A stretch of 42,114 bases of DNA from a virus (taxonomy: Duplodnaviria > Heunggongvirae > Uroviricota > Caudoviricetes). The position numbers and the translations under genes are program-made. Of the stretch, positions 32,813 to 39,593 are shown one piece after another. The notes under the pieces were generated by a model that was not told the DNA's origin, ran no database searches, and saw only the letters and a list, made by a program, of their open reading frames with translations. The stretch's first letter is position 1. Each line of letters opens with the position of its first letter. Where the stretch lies: the IMG/VR virus record IMGVR_UViG_2585427728_000007. The stretch is one strand, 5' to 3'.

Positions 32813-33253
32813 ATGAGAGAAGAAAAAATAATAACAATCTACACAACGGCGGTAAAACCCGGGCTGGCAATCACTCCTTTTATGACACCAGATCCTATAA
32901 TAGTGTCGGAAGAATACCCTTGTTCCGGCTCATTTTACCTAACTGCAATAATGTACTTCGAGCACGAAAAAAAATACACTACCGAACTTGATGTCGTATT
33001 CAATGGAGAATCGGTTTTACCTGATATCTCTAGCAATCAAGAGCAACTGCAAACATTTATGTTTTCTCCTGTCAATGAAAAATATGTTGTGGTTGGCACA
33101 TATCTTTTCGTTAAAAACATCAAACTTATAGAAACAGGAACATATGACATAATTTATCGCATCTTTGAAGACATTGATGGTAATCTTAGCGAAGTTATTG
33201 ATGAAAAAAAATGCGCTCTTATTTCAACCACCCCGAACAGAGATAAGGAATGA
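32813..33253 (+). CDS. Hypothetical protein, first gene of the cI-adjacent accessory cassette
   Basis: 146 aa; AT-rich coding sequence; ATG preceded by AAGGA; no terminator between the cI stop and this gene; no recognisable domain. Confidence 0.6.
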   Translation: MREEKIITIYTTAVKPGLAITPFMTPDPIIVSEEYPCSGSFYLTAIMYFEHEKKYTTELDVVFNGESVLPDISSNQEQLQTFMFSPVNEKYVVVGTYLFVKNIKLIETGTYDIIYRIFEDIDGNLSEVIDEKKCALISTTPNRDKE

Positions 33254-33606
33254 AACGACATCTGTACGCTGTGCCTCTTGACAGGAGTAAAGTTGATAAT
33301 TTTCCACATAACCACCATAATGATGAGACATATGGTGGTGGTAACGGTGGAGGTGGTGACATGTTACAGCGCATAAAAATTCTTGAAGATAAAGTCGCAA
33401 CCATGGCGACCGACATCGCTGTAATTAAGTCTAACTATGCAACATCTGCCAATGTAGAATCTGTTAAAACAGACATAGCTAATGCAAAAGCAGAACTTCA
33501 CAGCGCAATGAGACTCCAAGCCATGGCTATTATTGGTTCAGTTCTTGCAGCCGTTGGAACTGGTGTTGGGTTAATAATAAAAATGATGCCATCACTACCT
33601 CACTAA
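33250..33606 (+). CDS. Hypothetical membrane-anchored coiled-coil protein, second gene of the cassette
   Basis: 118 aa; ATGA overlap with the upstream gene; Gly-rich stretch YGGGNGGGGD, predicted coiled coil (LQRIKILEDKVATMATDIAVIKSN...VKTDIANAKAELHSAMRLQ) and a single C-terminal hydrophobic helix AMAIIGSVLAAVGTGVGLIIKMM. Confidence 0.6.
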   Translation: MKRHLYAVPLDRSKVDNFPHNHHNDETYGGGNGGGGDMLQRIKILEDKVATMATDIAVIKSNYATSANVESVKTDIANAKAELHSAMRLQAMAIIGSVLAAVGTGVGLIIKMMPSLPH

Positions 33607-33616
33607 GAATCTACAC

Positions 33617-33644
33617 AACCCGGCCTCAGCGCCGGGTTTTCTTT
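33617..33644 (+). terminator. Rho-independent terminator ending the cI-cassette operon
   Basis: AACCCGGC-CTCAGC-GCCGGGTT followed by TTCTTT, beginning 11 nt after the stop of the 118 aa gene. Confidence 0.65.
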
Positions 33645-33822
33645 GCCTCTCGATCCCCCACCTAAAAAACATAACTCATTGTATTTATTGAAAAACTGAT
33701 TGATACAACTTGCTAAACCACGCAATCCAGATCTCCCTCAAATCTCTTTATTTATCCTGTCGAATTCCTACAACAAAATAAAACACCATAAGAATCAATA
33801 CGATATTTGAAAATCAAAAGAA

Positions 33823-33866
33823 TTTATCATTTTGCTATTGCCATTAATTTATCATTCCGATAAAGT
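33823..33866 (+). promoter_or_regulatory. Left operator region (oL) with pL candidate
   Basis: 17 bp site TTTATCATTCCGATAAA (33848-33864) with perfectly inverted outer hexamers, plus a weaker site at 33823-33839, same motif as at oR; candidate pL -35 TTGCCA (33838-33843), 17 bp spacer, -10 TAAAGT (33861-33866), overlapped by the operator. Confidence 0.5.
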
Positions 33867-33934
33867 TTGCCCATCAGCAGGACGCACTACTCACCAGGGC
33901 GGTGAATATACAACGATTCGAATATGAATCTACG

Positions 33935-33949
33935 GCGCTGACAAAGCGC
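33935..33949 (+). promoter_or_regulatory. nutL boxB hairpin (GCGCU-GACAA-AGCGC)
   Basis: GCGCTGACAAAGCGC: 5 bp stem with GACAA pentaloop, the P22-type boxB as recalled; lies between pL and the N-like gene. No clear boxA identified. Confidence 0.6.
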
Positions 33950-34210
33950 AATAACCAAAGTGAACTTTGGGGTGTGGTGAAGCCAGCTAGTCACTGGCAA
34001 GTGCTTACCTACTGTTGAGCGGTGAAGCGCTCCCAACGCTAGCAATAGCGTGGACGAGATGGGGAGCCGCGGGCGATAAGGCCGCCATAACGCGCACGTT
34101 GTCGCATGGAAAAATCACTGGGGTGCCGGTTATACCCCTCCGAATGAGACTCAACAAGCTGGAGCTAGACTACCAGCCACCACACCACCAAAGTTCATCA
34201 GGAGGTCTAT

Positions 34211-34594
34211 ATGACACGCAGAACTCAGTTCAAAGGCAATTCACGTTCTCGTCGTCGTGAGCGTTTAAAGGCAAAGGCATTAGCTAACGGCGTACTGGCC
34301 CGCGAAGAAGCAATAAGTTCAGAAGTATTACACCGCCCTACTCTAAGCAGAGCGCAGATTCAGGCTAAAGGTACTCACGAAACGCCTGAGCGCATAGAAG
34401 ACGCTAAGCCAATTAAGTTCATGGCACAGGACGTGATCTGGCAACAGAAAGAATACAGACGCAATCTGGAGCGAGTGGCCATTGTGTACGCGAATGAGTT
34501 TGGACATAAGCAACCAGAAACTGGTGTATGTCTTCCAAACGTAGCCATTTACGCGGCAGGCTACCGGAAATCAAAACAACTGACAGCAAGATGA
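34211..34594 (+). CDS. N: N-like transcription antiterminator (P22 gp24-type)
   Basis: 127 aa; N-terminal arginine-rich motif GNSRSRRRERLKAKALA; C-terminus LPNVAIYAAGYRKSKQLTAR resembles P22 N as recalled; first gene downstream of pL/nutL; GGAGG Shine-Dalgarno. Confidence 0.65.
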   Translation: MTRRTQFKGNSRSRRRERLKAKALANGVLAREEAISSEVLHRPTLSRAQIQAKGTHETPERIEDAKPIKFMAQDVIWQQKEYRRNLERVAIVYANEFGHKQPETGVCLPNVAIYAAGYRKSKQLTAR

Positions 34595-34653
34595 CTTGTG
34601 TTGGTCGCCAGAAAATGAAATTAGGCAGTAAGCTACTGTATGAGGGGTGAGAT

Positions 34654-34842
34654 ATGCATAAATGTCAGTTCTGTGGATACATGTTTGAATCAAATGAAAT
34701 GCAACGTATTTCGTTAAACCTTATCGGTAGGCCATACAACATTTGCCTAGGATGTAGCGAGAAATACAAAAACAAAGACATGTGGGACGACAATAAAAAC
34801 GATATCGACTGGAATAAAGTGCCATGTATTGATGATAGTTAA
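34654..34842 (+). CDS. Hypothetical small zinc-ribbon protein (early-left accessory gene)
   Basis: 62 aa with two CxxC pairs (C5/C8 and C31/C34); AT-rich; GAGGGGTGAG before the ATG. Confidence 0.5.
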   Translation: MHKCQFCGYMFESNEMQRISLNLIGRPYNICLGCSEKYKNKDMWDDNKNDIDWNKVPCIDDS

Positions 34843-34922
34843 AAATAATTATGCCGCATAGTCGGCCTTCTTTTGGCATAAACAACAGAATAAACACTGC
34901 ACTGAATTATTTGAGGTGAGAT

Positions 34923-35393
34923 ATGACAAAATCATGGAGCGTACCTTTTCCTGAATCAGAAACTGAACATGATGGAATGCCTGTTTTCTGGAGATTCCAA
35001 GCGACAGTTGAAGAAGATGGAATCAAAATATTCGCACTTCAATATATAGCTTTTCATCAGACAGAGCATTATGCATGGTTGGTTCCTGCGCATTGGATTG
35101 TTAATTTTAAACCAGCACCAAATCAGTGGTTACAGGAATGGAAACAAAGGAGAAATAGATATGCAATTAAGAAAGTAGCAAAAAATGCAGAAAGATCTTT
35201 TGCGTTCCCGACGAAGAAACTTGCCATTGAAAGTTTATTGCGCCGGAAGAAATACCATTTGATGAGAATCAAACAAGATTTGGCTGTTGTATCAACTCTT
35301 GTTGATGGGATGAAGAATATTGATACATCAACACCAGATATTGAATATAACTTTGGACACAACCAAGAAACAGAAAATTGGGTGTTTTATTAG
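34923..35393 (+). CDS. Hypothetical protein (early-left accessory gene)
   Basis: 156 aa ORF in an AT-rich block; translation-initiation region (TGAGGTGAGATATG) nearly identical to that of the preceding small gene; no recognisable domain. Confidence 0.5.
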   Translation: MTKSWSVPFPESETEHDGMPVFWRFQATVEEDGIKIFALQYIAFHQTEHYAWLVPAHWIVNFKPAPNQWLQEWKQRRNRYAIKKVAKNAERSFAFPTKKLAIESLLRRKKYHLMRIKQDLAVVSTLVDGMKNIDTSTPDIEYNFGHNQETENWVFY

Positions 35394-35497
35394 TATGAAT
35401 AAGCACTGTGTATTCATTCCAACGAGTGAATACACGGAGCAATGTCGCTCGTAACTAAACAGGAGCCGACTTGTTCTGATTATTGGAAATCTTCTTT

Positions 35498-35524
35498 GCC
35501 CTCCGATGTGAGGGCGATTTTTTT
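35498..35524 (+). terminator. Rho-independent terminator in the pL operon
   Basis: GCCCTC-CGATGT-GAGGGC followed by GATTTTTTT, ending 13 nt before the ATG of the coiled-coil gene. Confidence 0.55.
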
Positions 35525-35536
35525 GATGGAGGATAT

Positions 35537-36505
35537 ATGAGTGAAGTAACAGATTTAGTTGTTATTGAAAAAGCAAATGCAATGACTGTATTTCAGTCTG
35601 CCGACCAGATTGAAGAAATCCTTCAAAAGGTTGAACGTGAAGTTATGTCCTTTGTGCCTGATATCACAACGGCAAAGGGCAGAAAGGAGATCGCTTCTCT
35701 GGCGTATAAAGTTGCGCAGACGAAAACATATCTCGATGGTCTTGGAAAAGACCTTGTTGCTGAACTGAAGGAAATTCCAAAGCTAATTGATGCCAACCGC
35801 AAGACAGTGCGTGATCGCCTTGATGAGCTGAAATCCAAGGCACGCCAGCCTCTTACTGATTATGAGGAGGAACAGGCACGGATTAAAGCCGAAGAAGAAG
35901 CTAAGGCAGCAGCTGAAGCTCTCGCAAAGCAAATTGAGTCTGACCATGAAATAGCTATTTTGATGGATTGCGAATTTGACCGCCAAAGAGAAGAGGCAAG
36001 ACTCAAAGCGGAGCAGGAAAAGCGAGAGCATGAAGAACGCTTAAAAAGAGAAGCTGAAGAGAAAGCCAGAGCAGAAGCCGAAGCAAAGGCAAAAGCCGAA
36101 ATTGAAGCAGCAGCAAGGCGAGAAGCAGAAGCTAAGGCCGCAGCGGAACGTGCAGAGCGTGAACGTATTGAAGCCGAGCAACGAGCACAGCGCGAAGCAA
36201 AAGAGGCAGCAGAACGAGCTGAAAGAGAAAAGCAGGCGGCAATTGAAGCAGAACGCCGAAAAGCACAGGAGGAGGCTGAACGAATCCGGCGCGAGGCTGA
36301 AGCAAAAGAGCAAGCCAGAATAGCAGAAGAAAAAAGAATCAAGGAAGAAGAAGAGTGTAGAGCAAAGGATAAAGCTCACCGGAAAGAAGTAAATAACAAA
36401 ATACTTGCTGACCTTATCAAGGTTGGCGCATCAGAAGATGTTGCTAAAAATATCATAACAGCCATCGTAAAAGGCGAAGTATTCGCAACAAAAATAACCT
36501 ACTAA
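35537..36505 (+). CDS. Hypothetical charged coiled-coil protein (TolA-like Ala/Glu/Lys/Arg-rich repeat region)
   Basis: Start taken at ATG 35537 (MSEVTDLVVIEK...) with GGAGG; the longer ORF-track start would translate through the terminator; about 200 aa of AEAKAKAEIEAAARREAEAKAAAERAERE-type low-complexity helix. Confidence 0.55.
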   Translation: MSEVTDLVVIEKANAMTVFQSADQIEEILQKVEREVMSFVPDITTAKGRKEIASLAYKVAQTKTYLDGLGKDLVAELKEIPKLIDANRKTVRDRLDELKSKARQPLTDYEEEQARIKAEEEAKAAAEALAKQIESDHEIAILMDCEFDRQREEARLKAEQEKREHEERLKREAEEKARAEAEAKAKAEIEAAARREAEAKAAAERAERERIEAEQRAQREAKEAAERAEREKQAAIEAERRKAQEEAERIRREAEAKEQARIAEEKRIKEEEECRAKDKAHRKEVNNKILADLIKVGASEDVAKNIITAIVKGEVFATKITY

Positions 36506-37052
36506 TAAAACCAACATAAGGAACCACCCATGATTTACGCAATCGCGGGAGGCGCTCGCATGGGTGCCTTCCAATTAAATGAATCTTTACTTGAACGAAT
36601 CACCCGTAAATTACGTGACGGATGGAAAAGAGTTGAGGTCTTATTATGCGCAATGAAATAGCCATCAATCACCAGATGCTTCGTGCTGCACAGAACAAAG
36701 CAGTAATAGCCAGATTTATTGGTGATTCAAAAATGTGGCTTGAAGCAAATAAAGCGATGAAATCAGCTATCAACCTTCCGTGGTATCGCAGGAAATGAGT
36801 TTTACAGATAACTGGTCAGACGAAGAATTCATTCGTCAGATGAAAGAATTAATCGGTAACGAAGGAGATATTCATGTCACTTGCAACCACAGTGAAGGAG
36901 AGCAAGTTACAGAGACGCATGTACACGCAGAAAGCTCTCTGGTATCGCCATAATGGCGACCGCGAAGGAATGCGGGTATGCCTTAATTTGTCCCGAGTCG
37001 AAGTATTAAATCAGCGTTATTTCCTTGGGCCGTGTCCATTCTGAGGTGAATT

Positions 37053-37760
37053 ATGGATTTGAACAAATTCGATGATCCATTCAGCCCTGAAGATATCGAA
37101 TGGCGAATACAGCAAAGCGGTAAAACACGCGATGGCAAGGTGTGGGCTATGGTGCTGGCTTATGTCACGAACCGGGCAATCATGAAACGCCTGGACGATG
37201 TTTGCGGCAAAGCAGGATGGCGCAATGAATACCGCGATATTCCCAACAACGGCGGCGTTGAATGCGGCATATCAATAAAGATTGATTCCGAATGGGTAAC
37301 CAAATGGGATGCTGCTGAAAACACGCAGGTAGAAGCCGTCAAAGGTGGTCGTTCCGGTGCAATGAAGCGCGCTGCCGTTCAGTGGGGAATCGGTCGGTAT
37401 CTGTATAACCTTGAGGAAGGTTTCGCACAAACATCTCTCGATAAAAAGCAGGGGTGGCACAGGGCAAAACTGAAGGATGGAACAGGATTTTACTGGCTCC
37501 CTCCATCGCTGCCAGGATGGGCAATCCCAGCATCAGATAACAAACCATCACCAGAAAATACCAACCAGAAATCTCCATCGGTTGACTGCGAACAAATCCT
37601 GAAAGACTTCAGCGATTATGCATCAACAGAAACTGACAAGAAAAAACTCATCGAGCGTTATCAGCGTGACTGGCAATTAATGGCTGGCAACGAGGAGGCG
37701 CAGGCTAAATGCGTTCAGGTAATGAACATCAGAGTTAACGAACTAAAACAGGCGGCATAA
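37053..37760 (+). CDS. Single-strand annealing protein, Rad52/Sak-like
   Basis: 235 aa; ...KGGRSGAMKRAAVQWGIGRYLYNL... resembles the conserved hairpin-helix region of Rad52-family annealases; immediately followed by ssb. Confidence 0.6.
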   Translation: MDLNKFDDPFSPEDIEWRIQQSGKTRDGKVWAMVLAYVTNRAIMKRLDDVCGKAGWRNEYRDIPNNGGVECGISIKIDSEWVTKWDAAENTQVEAVKGGRSGAMKRAAVQWGIGRYLYNLEEGFAQTSLDKKQGWHRAKLKDGTGFYWLPPSLPGWAIPASDNKPSPENTNQKSPSVDCEQILKDFSDYASTETDKKKLIERYQRDWQLMAGNEEAQAKCVQVMNIRVNELKQAA

Positions 37761-38234
37761 ATGGGAAGTAGAGGCGTAAATAAGGTGATCATTATTGGTC
37801 GCCTTGGGCATGATCCAGAAATCAGATATTCACCATCAGGAACGGCATTTGCAAACCTTACAGTTGCTACGTCAGAACAATGGCGTGATAAGCAAACTGG
37901 AGAGCAAAAGGAGCAGACGGAGTGGCACCGTGTGGTAATGAGCGGGAAACTGGCAGAAATTGCCAGCGAATATCTGCGAAAAGGCTCTGAGGTTTATCTT
38001 GAAGGAAAATTGCGGACAAGAAAATGGCAGGATCAAAGCGGGCAGGATCGGTTCACTACCGAAGTCATCGTGGGCGTTGGTGGAACCATGCAAATGCTTG
38101 GTGGCAAGCAAGGAGGCAATGAACAGTCTTCACCTCAGCGAAATGACGGTCAGCAACAAAGACAGCAACCTCAGCAGCAAGGGAATCACAGCGAACCACC
38201 TATGAACTTCGACGATTCGGATATTCCGTTCTAG
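37761..38234 (+). CDS. ssb: Single-stranded DNA-binding protein
   Basis: 157 aa; OB-fold N-terminus ([18 protein letters not shown]...), Gly/Gln-rich linker and acidic tail ending DDSDIPF. Confidence 0.9.
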
Positions 38235-38243
38235 GAGCTGAAT

Positions 38244-38723
38244 ATGAAAATCTGCTCAAGATGCCATCAACAGAAGGAAGAAAGGGACTTTCAAATCAGA
38301 AGAGCATCCAGAGATGGATTAACTGCCGCTTGCCGGGCTTGCCTGGCTGAATACGACAAAGAGCGCGCGGGATTGCCACATCGAGTATCAGCAAGGAGAG
38401 AATATCAATCATCGGAACTCGGCAGAGAACGGTGTAACGCAGCCAAAAAGCGGTTCATTCAGAGCAACCCATGGAAAAGAAAAGCCCACATCATCGTGGG
38501 TAATTTTTTGCGCGACGGTAAGCTAATCCGACCACCACAATGTGAGTGCTGCGGATCAGAATGTAAACCACAGGCGCACCACTGCGACTACAGCAAACCA
38601 ACCGATGTGATGTGGCTCTGCAAGTCATGTCATGTCGAGTGGCACAAACATAACAAACCTATCTACCCAGACGAGGAGCCAGTAACTCTCCCCTTCCCTC
38701 GTCACGCTATTCACGCAATTTAA
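38244..38723 (+). CDS. Zinc-finger protein, possible HNH-type nuclease
   Basis: 159 aa; N-terminal CxxC...CxxC and C-terminal CECCGSEC...HHCDY...CKSCHVEWH arrangement; sits between ssb and the exonuclease. Confidence 0.45.
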   Translation: MKICSRCHQQKEERDFQIRRASRDGLTAACRACLAEYDKERAGLPHRVSARREYQSSELGRERCNAAKKRFIQSNPWKRKAHIIVGNFLRDGKLIRPPQCECCGSECKPQAHHCDYSKPTDVMWLCKSCHVEWHKHNKPIYPDEEPVTLPFPRHAIHAI

Positions 38724-38731
38724 GGACTTAC

Positions 38732-39280
38732 ATGAATCACTTAATGGTTGACCTTGAAACAATGGGCAACGGGCCATATGCGCCAGTTATTTCTATTGGG
38801 GCGGTATTCTTTGACCCGAATACCGGAGAAACAGGAGAAGAGTTCTCGGTAAATATCTCGCTTGAGTCATCAATGCGATATCGGGCGCGTCCTGACGCTT
38901 CAACGATTTTATGGTGGATGGAACAGAGTGAAGAAGCCAGAAAATCGCTAACCAGCAACACTCAAGAGCTTTCAACGGCTCTTTCATGGTTATCTGAATT
39001 CATCATAAAGAACGCCAACCACAAACTCGTTCAGGTTTGGGGGAATGGAGCATCATTTGACTGCGTTATTCTCCGCAACAGTTATTCGCTGACAGGGCAG
39101 CCAGTTCCGTGGCAGTGGTGGAATGACCGCGACGTAAGAACAATCGTCGAACTTGGGAAGGCAATAGGATTCGACCCTAAGCGAGATATGCCATTCAAAG
39201 GAACTCGCCACAACGCGCTTGATGATGCCATCCACCAAGCCAAATACGTTTCAGCGATCTGGAAAAAGTTAGCTAAATAA
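38732..39280 (+). CDS. 3'-5' exonuclease (DEDDh / DnaQ-like fold)
   Basis: 182 aa; Exo I motif MVDLETMG (Asp, Glu) and Exo III motif HNALDDA (His, Asp). Confidence 0.7.
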   Translation: MNHLMVDLETMGNGPYAPVISIGAVFFDPNTGETGEEFSVNISLESSMRYRARPDASTILWWMEQSEEARKSLTSNTQELSTALSWLSEFIIKNANHKLVQVWGNGASFDCVILRNSYSLTGQPVPWQWWNDRDVRTIVELGKAIGFDPKRDMPFKGTRHNALDDAIHQAKYVSAIWKKLAK

Positions 39281-39296
39281 TCAACAGGAGAAAACC

Positions 39297-39593
39297 ATGC
39301 CAGCGCCTCTATATGGTGCGGACGACGCGCGCCGCTGTTCCGGCAATTCCGTATCGGAGGTGCTGGATAAATTCAGGAAAAACTACGACCGGATAATGTC
39401 GCTACCGCAGGAAACGAAAGAGGAAAAGGAATTTCGCCATTGTATATGGCTTGCAGAGAAAGAAGAACGCGAGCGAATTTACCAGACATCAATCCGACCA
39501 TTCCGCAAAGCCACATATACCCACTTCCCTGAATATATCGACCCGCGCCTGCGTAATTACCGCTCACGCTATGGCGCTATCAGTAATGACTGA
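39297..39593 (+). CDS. Hypothetical protein
   Basis: 98 aa ORF with AGGAG Shine-Dalgarno. Confidence 0.45.

Follow-up and report, generated by a model that had tools for sequence, protein, structure and literature searches.

A 322-aa, Ala/Glu/Lys/Arg-rich protein is encoded in the early-left (pL) operon of the Caudoviricetes sequence IMGVR_UViG_2585427728_000007 (42,114 nt; we call this whole analysed stretch the window). By sequence comparison the protein is a member of the phi80 Agt/Mog - Sf6 gp33 - D3 Orf53 family (PHROG 1376, annotated as function unknown; E 2.9e-109 over residues 1-322). We detected that this family is the lead gene of phage recombination (Rec) modules, in the position that gam takes in lambda, whichever single-strand annealing protein (SSAP) and exonuclease follow it. 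We suggest, with a probability of roughly 55% for the reading as a whole, that the protein is an elongated helical Rec-module protein of the Agt/Mog family, which would be directed at the host and would perhaps act on the RecBCD axis. A role as an accessory factor of Rec modules appears probable; modulation of the RecBCD/Gam axis specifically is a tentative and rather doubtful part of the proposal.

The family assignment follows from several comparisons. phi80 Agt is a full-length homologue (322 aa in both proteins, 51% identity, E 1e-63), D3 Orf53 aligns over the full length at 36% identity (E 6e-42), and Sf6 gp33 is encoded by DNA of about 98% identity with the same terminator and flanking genes. 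The phmmer search with residues 1-119 reached 4995 clusters (50% identity) at E<=1e-3 and 3500 at E<=1e-10, nearly always at the N-terminus of proteins 260-430 aa long. Judged from the breadth of these N-domain matches, the open reading frame (ORF) 35537-36505 is certainly coding.

The linkage to recombination genes was analyzed in 80 viral contigs chosen for their distance from the window (35-45% identity to the member of phage Piluca), with a complete member in 79 of them. Neighbouring genes were classified by position, and ERF and RecT were confirmed by Pfam on representatives. The next gene encodes an SSAP in 67 of the 79 loci; elsewhere GamL and then an SSAP follow (2/79), an HNH insert and then ERF (3/79) or a Sak4-type AAA_24 protein (2/79), or the SSAP and exonuclease lie immediately upstream of the member instead (4/79). 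The gap from the member to the next gene is typically 7-10 nt, and an exonuclease is found within 2.6 kb in 73 of the loci. The distant annotated phages that we examined all have the member on the same strand as the recombination genes and adjacent to them. It precedes ERF and an exonuclease in D3 and JBD44, ERF and a YqaJ exonuclease in phiLM21, Bet in TCUAN1 and Piluca, and Bet, Exo and SSB in Ab31; in Yersinia phage 29.18 it is followed by cIII, two small ORFs, RecE and RecT, and in Vibrio phiV208 the order is ERF, exonuclease, small ORF and member. The adjacency of member and SSAP spans phages of Alpha-, Beta- and Gammaproteobacteria, and the linkage is undiscussed in the recombination-module literature covered by our analysis. 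An HNH_3 homing-endonuclease gene was seen exactly between the family member and ERF in three viral contigs.

The family member does not depend on the type of recombinase beside it. Ab31 ORF39 and JBD44 gp65 are 100% identical over 354 aa, and the genes downstream of them are a RecT-family Bet with Exo in Ab31 and ERF with an exonuclease in JBD44, the two exonucleases being only 32% identical. Among pairs of members of at least 80% identity, SSAPs of different families were found in 245 of 484. Since the sequence is kept while the SSAP and exonuclease are swapped, action on the host or on DNA is likelier than action on those proteins. The DNA homology between Ab31 and JBD44 stops 2 nt past the stop codon of the member, and the annealing-protein/exonuclease pair has been exchanged as a unit.

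The RecBCD axis enters through phi80, whose agt gene (NC_021190 gp39) was reached by tblastn of annotated phages with the N-terminal domain. The depositors annotate it as 'anti-toxin for Gam' and add in a note 'Mog (modifier of Gam)'; for gamL, which comes directly after it, the annotation is 'gam-like host nuclease inhibitor; toxic without Mog', and RecT and Exo are the genes beyond. Agt/Mog and the window protein share the three-part architecture described below, the His-Arg motif and the terminal I-x-Y, and both genes lie in the pL operon in the same orientation 5' of an annealing protein. Their N-domains are only 42% identical, and phi80 has gamL directly 3', whereas the window has instead cIII, kil, a Rad52-type SSAP, SSB and Abc2. 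No GamL homologue was detected in the whole window (tblastn, E<=1e-2).

In the function that we propose, the product would be an elongated, all-helical early protein, in which conserved N- and C-domains are joined by a charged rod of variable length. The gene would be transcribed from pL and reached only by polymerase reading through a tL2a-type terminator, presumably in the N-modified form, and it would be co-expressed with cIII, kil, the Rad52-type annealing protein, SSB and Abc2. Because no dependence on the recombinase type is seen, the target would probably be one that all these phages share, either a host factor or DNA ends. Foremost among the candidates would be the host axis of double-stranded DNA (dsDNA) end processing, namely RecBCD and its phage inhibitors, and this candidate fits the phi80 annotation of Agt/Mog as neutralising the toxicity of a Gam-like inhibitor.

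Known anti-RecBCD genes were counted by tblastn around three sets of loci. Within 5 kb of the diverse members we detected GamL in 2/80 and no Gam, Abc2 or MuGam. Among window-like loci Abc2 is present within 4-5 kb in 73/80 and GamL in none, and among phi80-like loci GamL is present within the same distance in 47/80 and Abc2 in one. The type of N-domain tracks the neighbouring anti-RecBCD gene and the type of C-domain reassorts freely; at least 20 loci join a phi80-type N-domain to a window-type C-domain. That N-domain type and inhibitor go together could reflect contact of the N-domain with the inhibitor, or mere linkage in two narrowly sampled sets.

Several observations weigh against the proposed function. 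The antitoxin claim for Agt/Mog is known from a GenBank note. The phi80-type N-domain occurs without GamL in 33/80 loci and the window type occurs with Abc2, so that neutralisation of GamL cannot be the general function of the family. The adjacency is looser in the window and in other enteric lambdoid phages, where cIII, kil and small ORFs part the gene from the SSAP and the slot is that of lambda ea10, than in the Pseudomonas phages (D3 Orf53, Ab31 ORF39, JBD44 gp65), where the gene abuts the SSAP with an 8-nt gap. The gene is missing from the Rec functions given in a 2025 survey of lambdoid Rec modules, and domain and structure searches brought up no domain for DNA binding, enzymatic activity or known protein binding. 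Natural in-frame deletions of up to 77 aa take out otherwise conserved rod segments, and some copies may be decaying prophage genes. We found no functional studies of agt, Mog, gamL or TolA-like lambdoid proteins in the literature. The earlier sequence-only reading of this DNA, which called the function of such phage proteins unknown, stands only in part, given the annotation of the phi80 homologue and the tie of the family to recombination modules.

The architecture of the family was derived from an alignment of 111 representatives. The N-domain has the invariant residues R49, K63, G70, K78, D85, R88, P105 and E110, and many of its conserved positions recur at i+7 along one helix. The C-domain is about 42-45 aa long in the family and carries a conserved His-Arg and a C-terminal I-x-Y. 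Between them lies a spacer (P105 to H281) of 107-263 aa, with a median of 187 among the representatives and a composition of Glu (about 22%), Ala (21%), Arg (11%) and Lys (9%). In the window protein these four residues (E63, A59, K36, R32) make up 59% of the chain, reaching 76% in residues 116-300 versus only 37% in residues 1-115, in keeping with the sequence-only reading, which had seen the richness in these residues; the net charge is about -10.

AlphaFold2 on the family alignment (mean predicted local distance difference test score 87, predicted template modelling score 0.36) predicts helices at 12-20, 22-37, 46-193, 204-295 and 300-311; the break at 194-203 is of low confidence. The model is compatible with a long hairpin joining the N and C ends. 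Models of homologues in BFVD superpose on it at a root-mean-square deviation of only 69-96 A, and the rod has many i/i+4 salt bridges and no clear heptad stripe, so that the protein may be either a hairpin or an extended rod. The sequence-only description of a large, charged, helical early-operon protein is borne out, and the coiled coil that it named is at most a possible one in the canonical sense. Residues 46-115 have a clear hydrophobic periodicity peak at 3.55-3.6. In the rod (116-295) a weak peak at 3.65 appears when Ala is counted with the large hydrophobics and is lost when these are counted by themselves, and i/i+4 opposite-charge pairs are dense (about 0.32 per residue). In length, charge and this density of pairs the rod resembles the ER/K single alpha-helix domains, from which it differs in being far richer in Ala. 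The two long helices and central break predicted by AlphaFold2 recall the antiparallel coiled coils of Rad50/SMC proteins and would place the N and C ends together; in contrast to Rad50/SbcC/SMC, the protein has no ATPase head or zinc hook and no ATPase/SMC match in Pfam.

Profile searches gave no known family. Pfam had no match to the whole protein, to the N- and C-domains apart or to the 111 family members; no NCBIfam or PADLOC model matched the protein; and the PDB, searched by sequence with the single protein and with the N-domain profile, gave chance matches only, including Rad50 coiled-coil fragments to the profile at E 1.2-2. A suspected resemblance of the N-domain to Pfam DUF1351 was dropped, as no family member matched it. 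Homology to lambda Ea10 (E 3.0) or Gam (E 4.1) was likewise rejected.

The protein could be a stand-alone inhibitor of host nucleases or a protector of DNA ends, a functional analogue of Gam providing the sole anti-RecBCD function in modules without Gam, GamL, Abc2 and MuGam. Like lambda Gam, phi80 GamL and P22 Abc2, most members hold the gam map position, directly 5' of the SSAP, with early pL expression and independence of the recombinase type; within one host species the same member sequence stands beside different annealing proteins and exonucleases; and no known anti-RecBCD gene lies within 5 kb in 78 of the 80 diverse loci, in a tblastn census to which inhibitors of unknown families would be invisible. 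The Ab31 'BAS' recombineering operon is described as being without a RecBCD inhibitor and was cloned without ORF39, and exogenous lambda Gam improves BAS recombineering in P. aeruginosa with ORF39 left out (PMC6438905). We nevertheless regard this alternative as unlikely. Many members co-occur with Abc2 or GamL, where the function would be redundant, which argues against a pure Gam-analogue role; the family has neither sequence nor fold similarity to these inhibitors (no structural match to Gam or Ku was found), is 2-3x larger than they are, and at a net charge near -10 is no obvious DNA mimic. For the family an effect on RecBCD is only proposed.

A passive scaffold or tether, in which a rigid rod (perhaps a dimer or hairpin) bridges DNA ends or spaces recombination proteins or host SSB in the manner of Rad50/SbcC without the ATPase, would suit two very long predicted helices with conserved domains at both ends, a rod that varies widely in length while the end domains are conserved, and the tight coupling of the gene to that of the SSAP. 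The strongest period among spacer lengths in the family, 3.64 residues (R 0.44, family-wise p about 0.001), is that of an alpha-helix, which would suit a rotational register of the ends. The signal was gone once equal lengths were collapsed, so that it is only a hint that the helical phase between the end domains may matter, and recent natural indels are mostly not whole helical turns. The identical member beside unrelated SSAP/exonuclease pairs speaks against specific contacts with them, and no nucleotide- or DNA-binding domain was found; a scaffold is thus improbable in our estimation. Lower still we would place counter-defence or a decoy that travels with the Rec module and plays no part in recombination as such, for example by masking the phage recombination proteins or RecBCD inhibition from abortive-infection sensors. 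In its favour, the gene has ral-, sieB-escape- and kil-type genes as neighbours in the mosaic, accessory stretch of the pL operon, N- and C-domain types are freely recombined while the N-domain type follows the nearby anti-RecBCD gene, and the phi80 note has Agt/Mog relieving a toxicity. However, no PADLOC or other defence-related match was obtained, the near-universal adjacency to the SSAP in phages of three proteobacterial classes is more than is usual for anti-defence cargo, and the N-domain/inhibitor correlation may be linkage only.

The TolA-like character seen by the sequence-only reading, and the TolA name given by automatic annotation, would place the product in the envelope, where it would span the periplasm or disturb it. 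We regard this as highly improbable, and as family membership it is already refuted. What stands of 'TolA-like' is composition, since the protein and domain II of E. coli TolA both have a long Ala/Glu/Lys-rich alpha-helical segment. The N-terminal transmembrane anchor of the TolA family is absent (maximum 19-residue Kyte-Doolittle mean 1.03, at residue 293), and the N-terminus, MSEVTDLVVIEKANAM, is polar and not signal peptide-like. TolA domain III (PF06519) was not matched by the whole protein at E<=0.1 or by the C-terminal 59 aa at E<=10, whereas K-12 TolA in the same Pfam search matched this C-terminal domain at 2e-38; no TolA model of NCBIfam matched at E<=1, and composition-corrected BLASTP against K-12 TolA gave E 0.25 over 60 low-complexity residues. 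In comparison with the K-12 tol locus there is no tolQRA-tolB-pal context: the gene lies between a gp17-like ORF and cIII in a phage pL operon with a recombination module, a setting for a cytoplasmic protein.

The misnomer has spread. Because of the shared Ala/Glu/Lys-rich composition, annotation pipelines assign the TolA name: PGAP calls the E. coli copies 'cell envelope biogenesis protein TolA', 'coiled-coil domain-containing protein' or 'hypothetical protein', and hundreds of RefSeq, TPA and JGI records carry 'cell envelope biogenesis protein TolA' or 'colicin import membrane protein' for this gene. The name is wrong and is spreading through the databases. The copy of HF4s is named 'antitoxin protein' instead, presumably by transfer from phi80.

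The gene itself is common. The 1.2 kb around it is 97-99% identical to 35 full-length phage records, among them Sf6, mEp213, mEp234, mEp043, HK544, HK633, CUS-3, IME10 and Stx1a phages; parts of it occur in 327 records. The protein is 99% identical to a cluster of 471 sequences, and the gene was found in 530 of 5426 complete E. coli genomes (about 10%). The gene and its terminator were already known: both were annotated in Sf6 in 2004, where the counterpart is 'gene 33 protein, similar to phage D3 gene Orf53', and the homologue was named in phi80 in 2012. The sequence feature is in itself ordinary, and the correction of its annotation is a useful by-product.

The features of the locus are listed in the table below, together with the neighbouring ORFs.

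Features of the early-left operon of the window around the gene for the 322-aa protein (positions in the window)
Feature	Position	Strand	Evidence or remark
Candidate pL-like sigma-70 promoter, TTGCCA-17-TAAAGT	33838-33866	+	Consensus scan, 9/12 matches; head of the early-left operon
Putative nutL boxB-type hairpin, GCGCTGACAAAGCGC	33935-33949	+	Read directly from the sequence
Antiterminator N gene, 127 aa	34211-34594	+	Pfam PF25694 N_peptide, E 3.1e-15; PHROG 271, anti-termination protein N-like
ORF, 62 aa, just after N	34654-34842	+	CxxC...CxxC motifs; PHROG 19863 (annotated unknown function); zinc-finger Pfam matches only sub-threshold
ORF, 156 aa, 5' of the terminator	34923-35393	+	PHROG 1636 (annotated function unknown); no Pfam match; 3' end matches H-19B region annotated '17: protein gp17'
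Conserved lambdoid boundary segment carrying the terminator	35403-35536	+	Identity to lambda 33911-34045; overlaps Sf6 'bsq4 boundary sequence'
Intrinsic terminator, lambda tL2a homologue	35496-35524	+	Stem 8 pairs, loop 6 nt, T7 run
Shine-Dalgarno GGAGGA	35528-35533	+	3 nt 5' of ATG; read from the sequence
Coding sequence, 322 aa	35537-36505	+	ATG, 322 codons, stop at 36503-36505
Conserved N-terminal helical domain, aa 1-115	35537-35881	+	Alignment; AlphaFold2 helices 12-20, 22-37, 46 onward
Ala/Glu/Arg/Lys helical rod, aa 116-275	35882-36361	+	Length varies across the family
Indel-prone repeat region, aa 127-240	35915-36256	+	Imperfect 33-nt / 6-nt repeats
Conserved C-terminal domain, aa 276-322	36362-36502	+	H281-R282, terminal I-x-Y
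Antisense ORF, 160 aa	35860-36342	-	Ser/Ala/Cys/Phe-rich; over the repeat region
Antisense ORF, 112 aa	36041-36379	-	Ser/Ala/Cys/Phe-rich; over the repeat region
cIII (FtsH inhibitor), next gene downstream	36530-36661	+	Annotated cIII at the homologous position in Sf6, mEp234 and others
Rad52/22-family SSAP	37053-37760	+	Pfam PF04098, E 9.3e-26; PHROG 1097
Phage SSB	37761-38234	+	Translation ends DDSDIPF; homologous to Sf6 gene 27
Cys-rich ORF, 159 aa, between SSB and abc2	38244-38723	+	99% identical to Sf6 gp26
ORF, 182 aa, between SSB and abc2	38732-39280	+	Not at this position in Sf6
Abc2-type anti-RecBCD gene	39297-39593	+	97% identity to Sf6 gp25, annotated 'RecBC inhibitor; similar to P22 abc2'

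The sequence-only reading placed a terminator immediately upstream of the gene, and this was upheld. The hairpin (35496-35517, core GCCCTC/GAGGGC) is followed by TTTTTTT at 35518-35524, leaving 12 nt to the ATG; it is a modest hairpin, the fold of the 71-nt context having -18.7 kcal/mol and a z of -2.07. The consensus scan for terminator-like sites is by itself weak evidence, since 9 sites were observed in 6 kb versus 6.2 expected from shuffled sequence. The terminator is credible because of homology: the boundary segment is 95.6% identical to the lambda segment directly 5' of ea10, and the annotations of both Sf6 ('homology to phage lambda; tL2A') and mEp234 mark a terminator at the homologous site. 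As the same 135-bp segment precedes the unrelated ea10 in lambda, the terminator belongs to a conserved mosaic joint found in lambdoid pL operons and not to the gene, so that the gating of this gene, as it had been claimed, holds for the position of the terminator and fails as a gene-specific device. The start coordinate of 35498 given earlier falls in the terminator and had to be replaced by the start codon at 35537. We also rejected a longer form with a TTG start (35483, 340 aa), whose start would fall inside the terminator; relatives conserve another form.

Comparison with lambda indicates that the gene is a mosaic cassette in place of ea10 between two conserved joints, because the flanks are conserved with lambda on both sides: upstream in the 135 bp 5' of the start, and downstream in cIII, which follows in both phages and has a 48-bp stretch 100% identical to lambda cIII. 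The gene between the joints is unrelated to ea10. The candidate promoter corresponds in position to PL as annotated in the homologous regions of mEp234 and Sf6, and the hairpin GCGCTGACAAAGCGC is one that we take to be a P22-type boxB. With the N gene and this boxB-type hairpin upstream in the same operon, and by analogy with lambda biology, N-dependent read-through of the terminator into the gene is a reasonable inference. The Rfam scan of 33000-37500 gave no match. On the downstream side, the Rad52-type SSAP gene begins 548 nt 3' of the stop codon of the 322-aa gene, on the same strand and in the same operon, with SSB and Abc2.

The repetitive part varies in length, as the sequence-only reading had supposed. 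The DNA repeats are imperfect: a 33-nt unit is present in six copies (67-76% identity), and an AGAAGC-like unit of 6 nt forms an array. Relatives that are more than 95% identical elsewhere differ by indels of nine sizes (+11, -13, -16, -20, -22, -32, -47, -53 and -77 aa), all within residues about 127-240, and the natural lengths among close relatives range from 245 to 333 aa. The two antisense ORFs across the repeats are most simply artefacts of the GAA/GCA-rich, low-complexity coding strand. We also detected a 111-aa E. coli protein that is a natural deletion fusion of residues 1-80 of the 322-aa protein, in frame, with the C-terminal ~30 residues of Abc2, which implies a prophage deletion that took cIII, kil, the annealing protein, SSB and most of abc2.

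With about 5000 clusters at 50% identity, the family is a very large one, and it is almost invariably the first gene of phage recombination modules. Going beyond the host-directed role proposed above, we offer as a speculation, itself on the unlikely side, that the family is the missing fourth component of annealing-protein/exonuclease systems: a host-directed rod that would control dsDNA-end processing, either by inhibiting RecBCD-type nucleases or by tuning inhibitors of the Gam/Abc2 type, with end domains held in helical register and a rod resized by repeat slippage. If this is correct, it would account for how the many phage recombination modules without Gam can function in hosts proficient in RecBCD/AddAB, and a family member would be an additive for recombineering operons such as Ab31 BAS. 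The gene is absent from BAS, a widely used recombineering operon, and adding it might improve the engineering of non-model bacteria.

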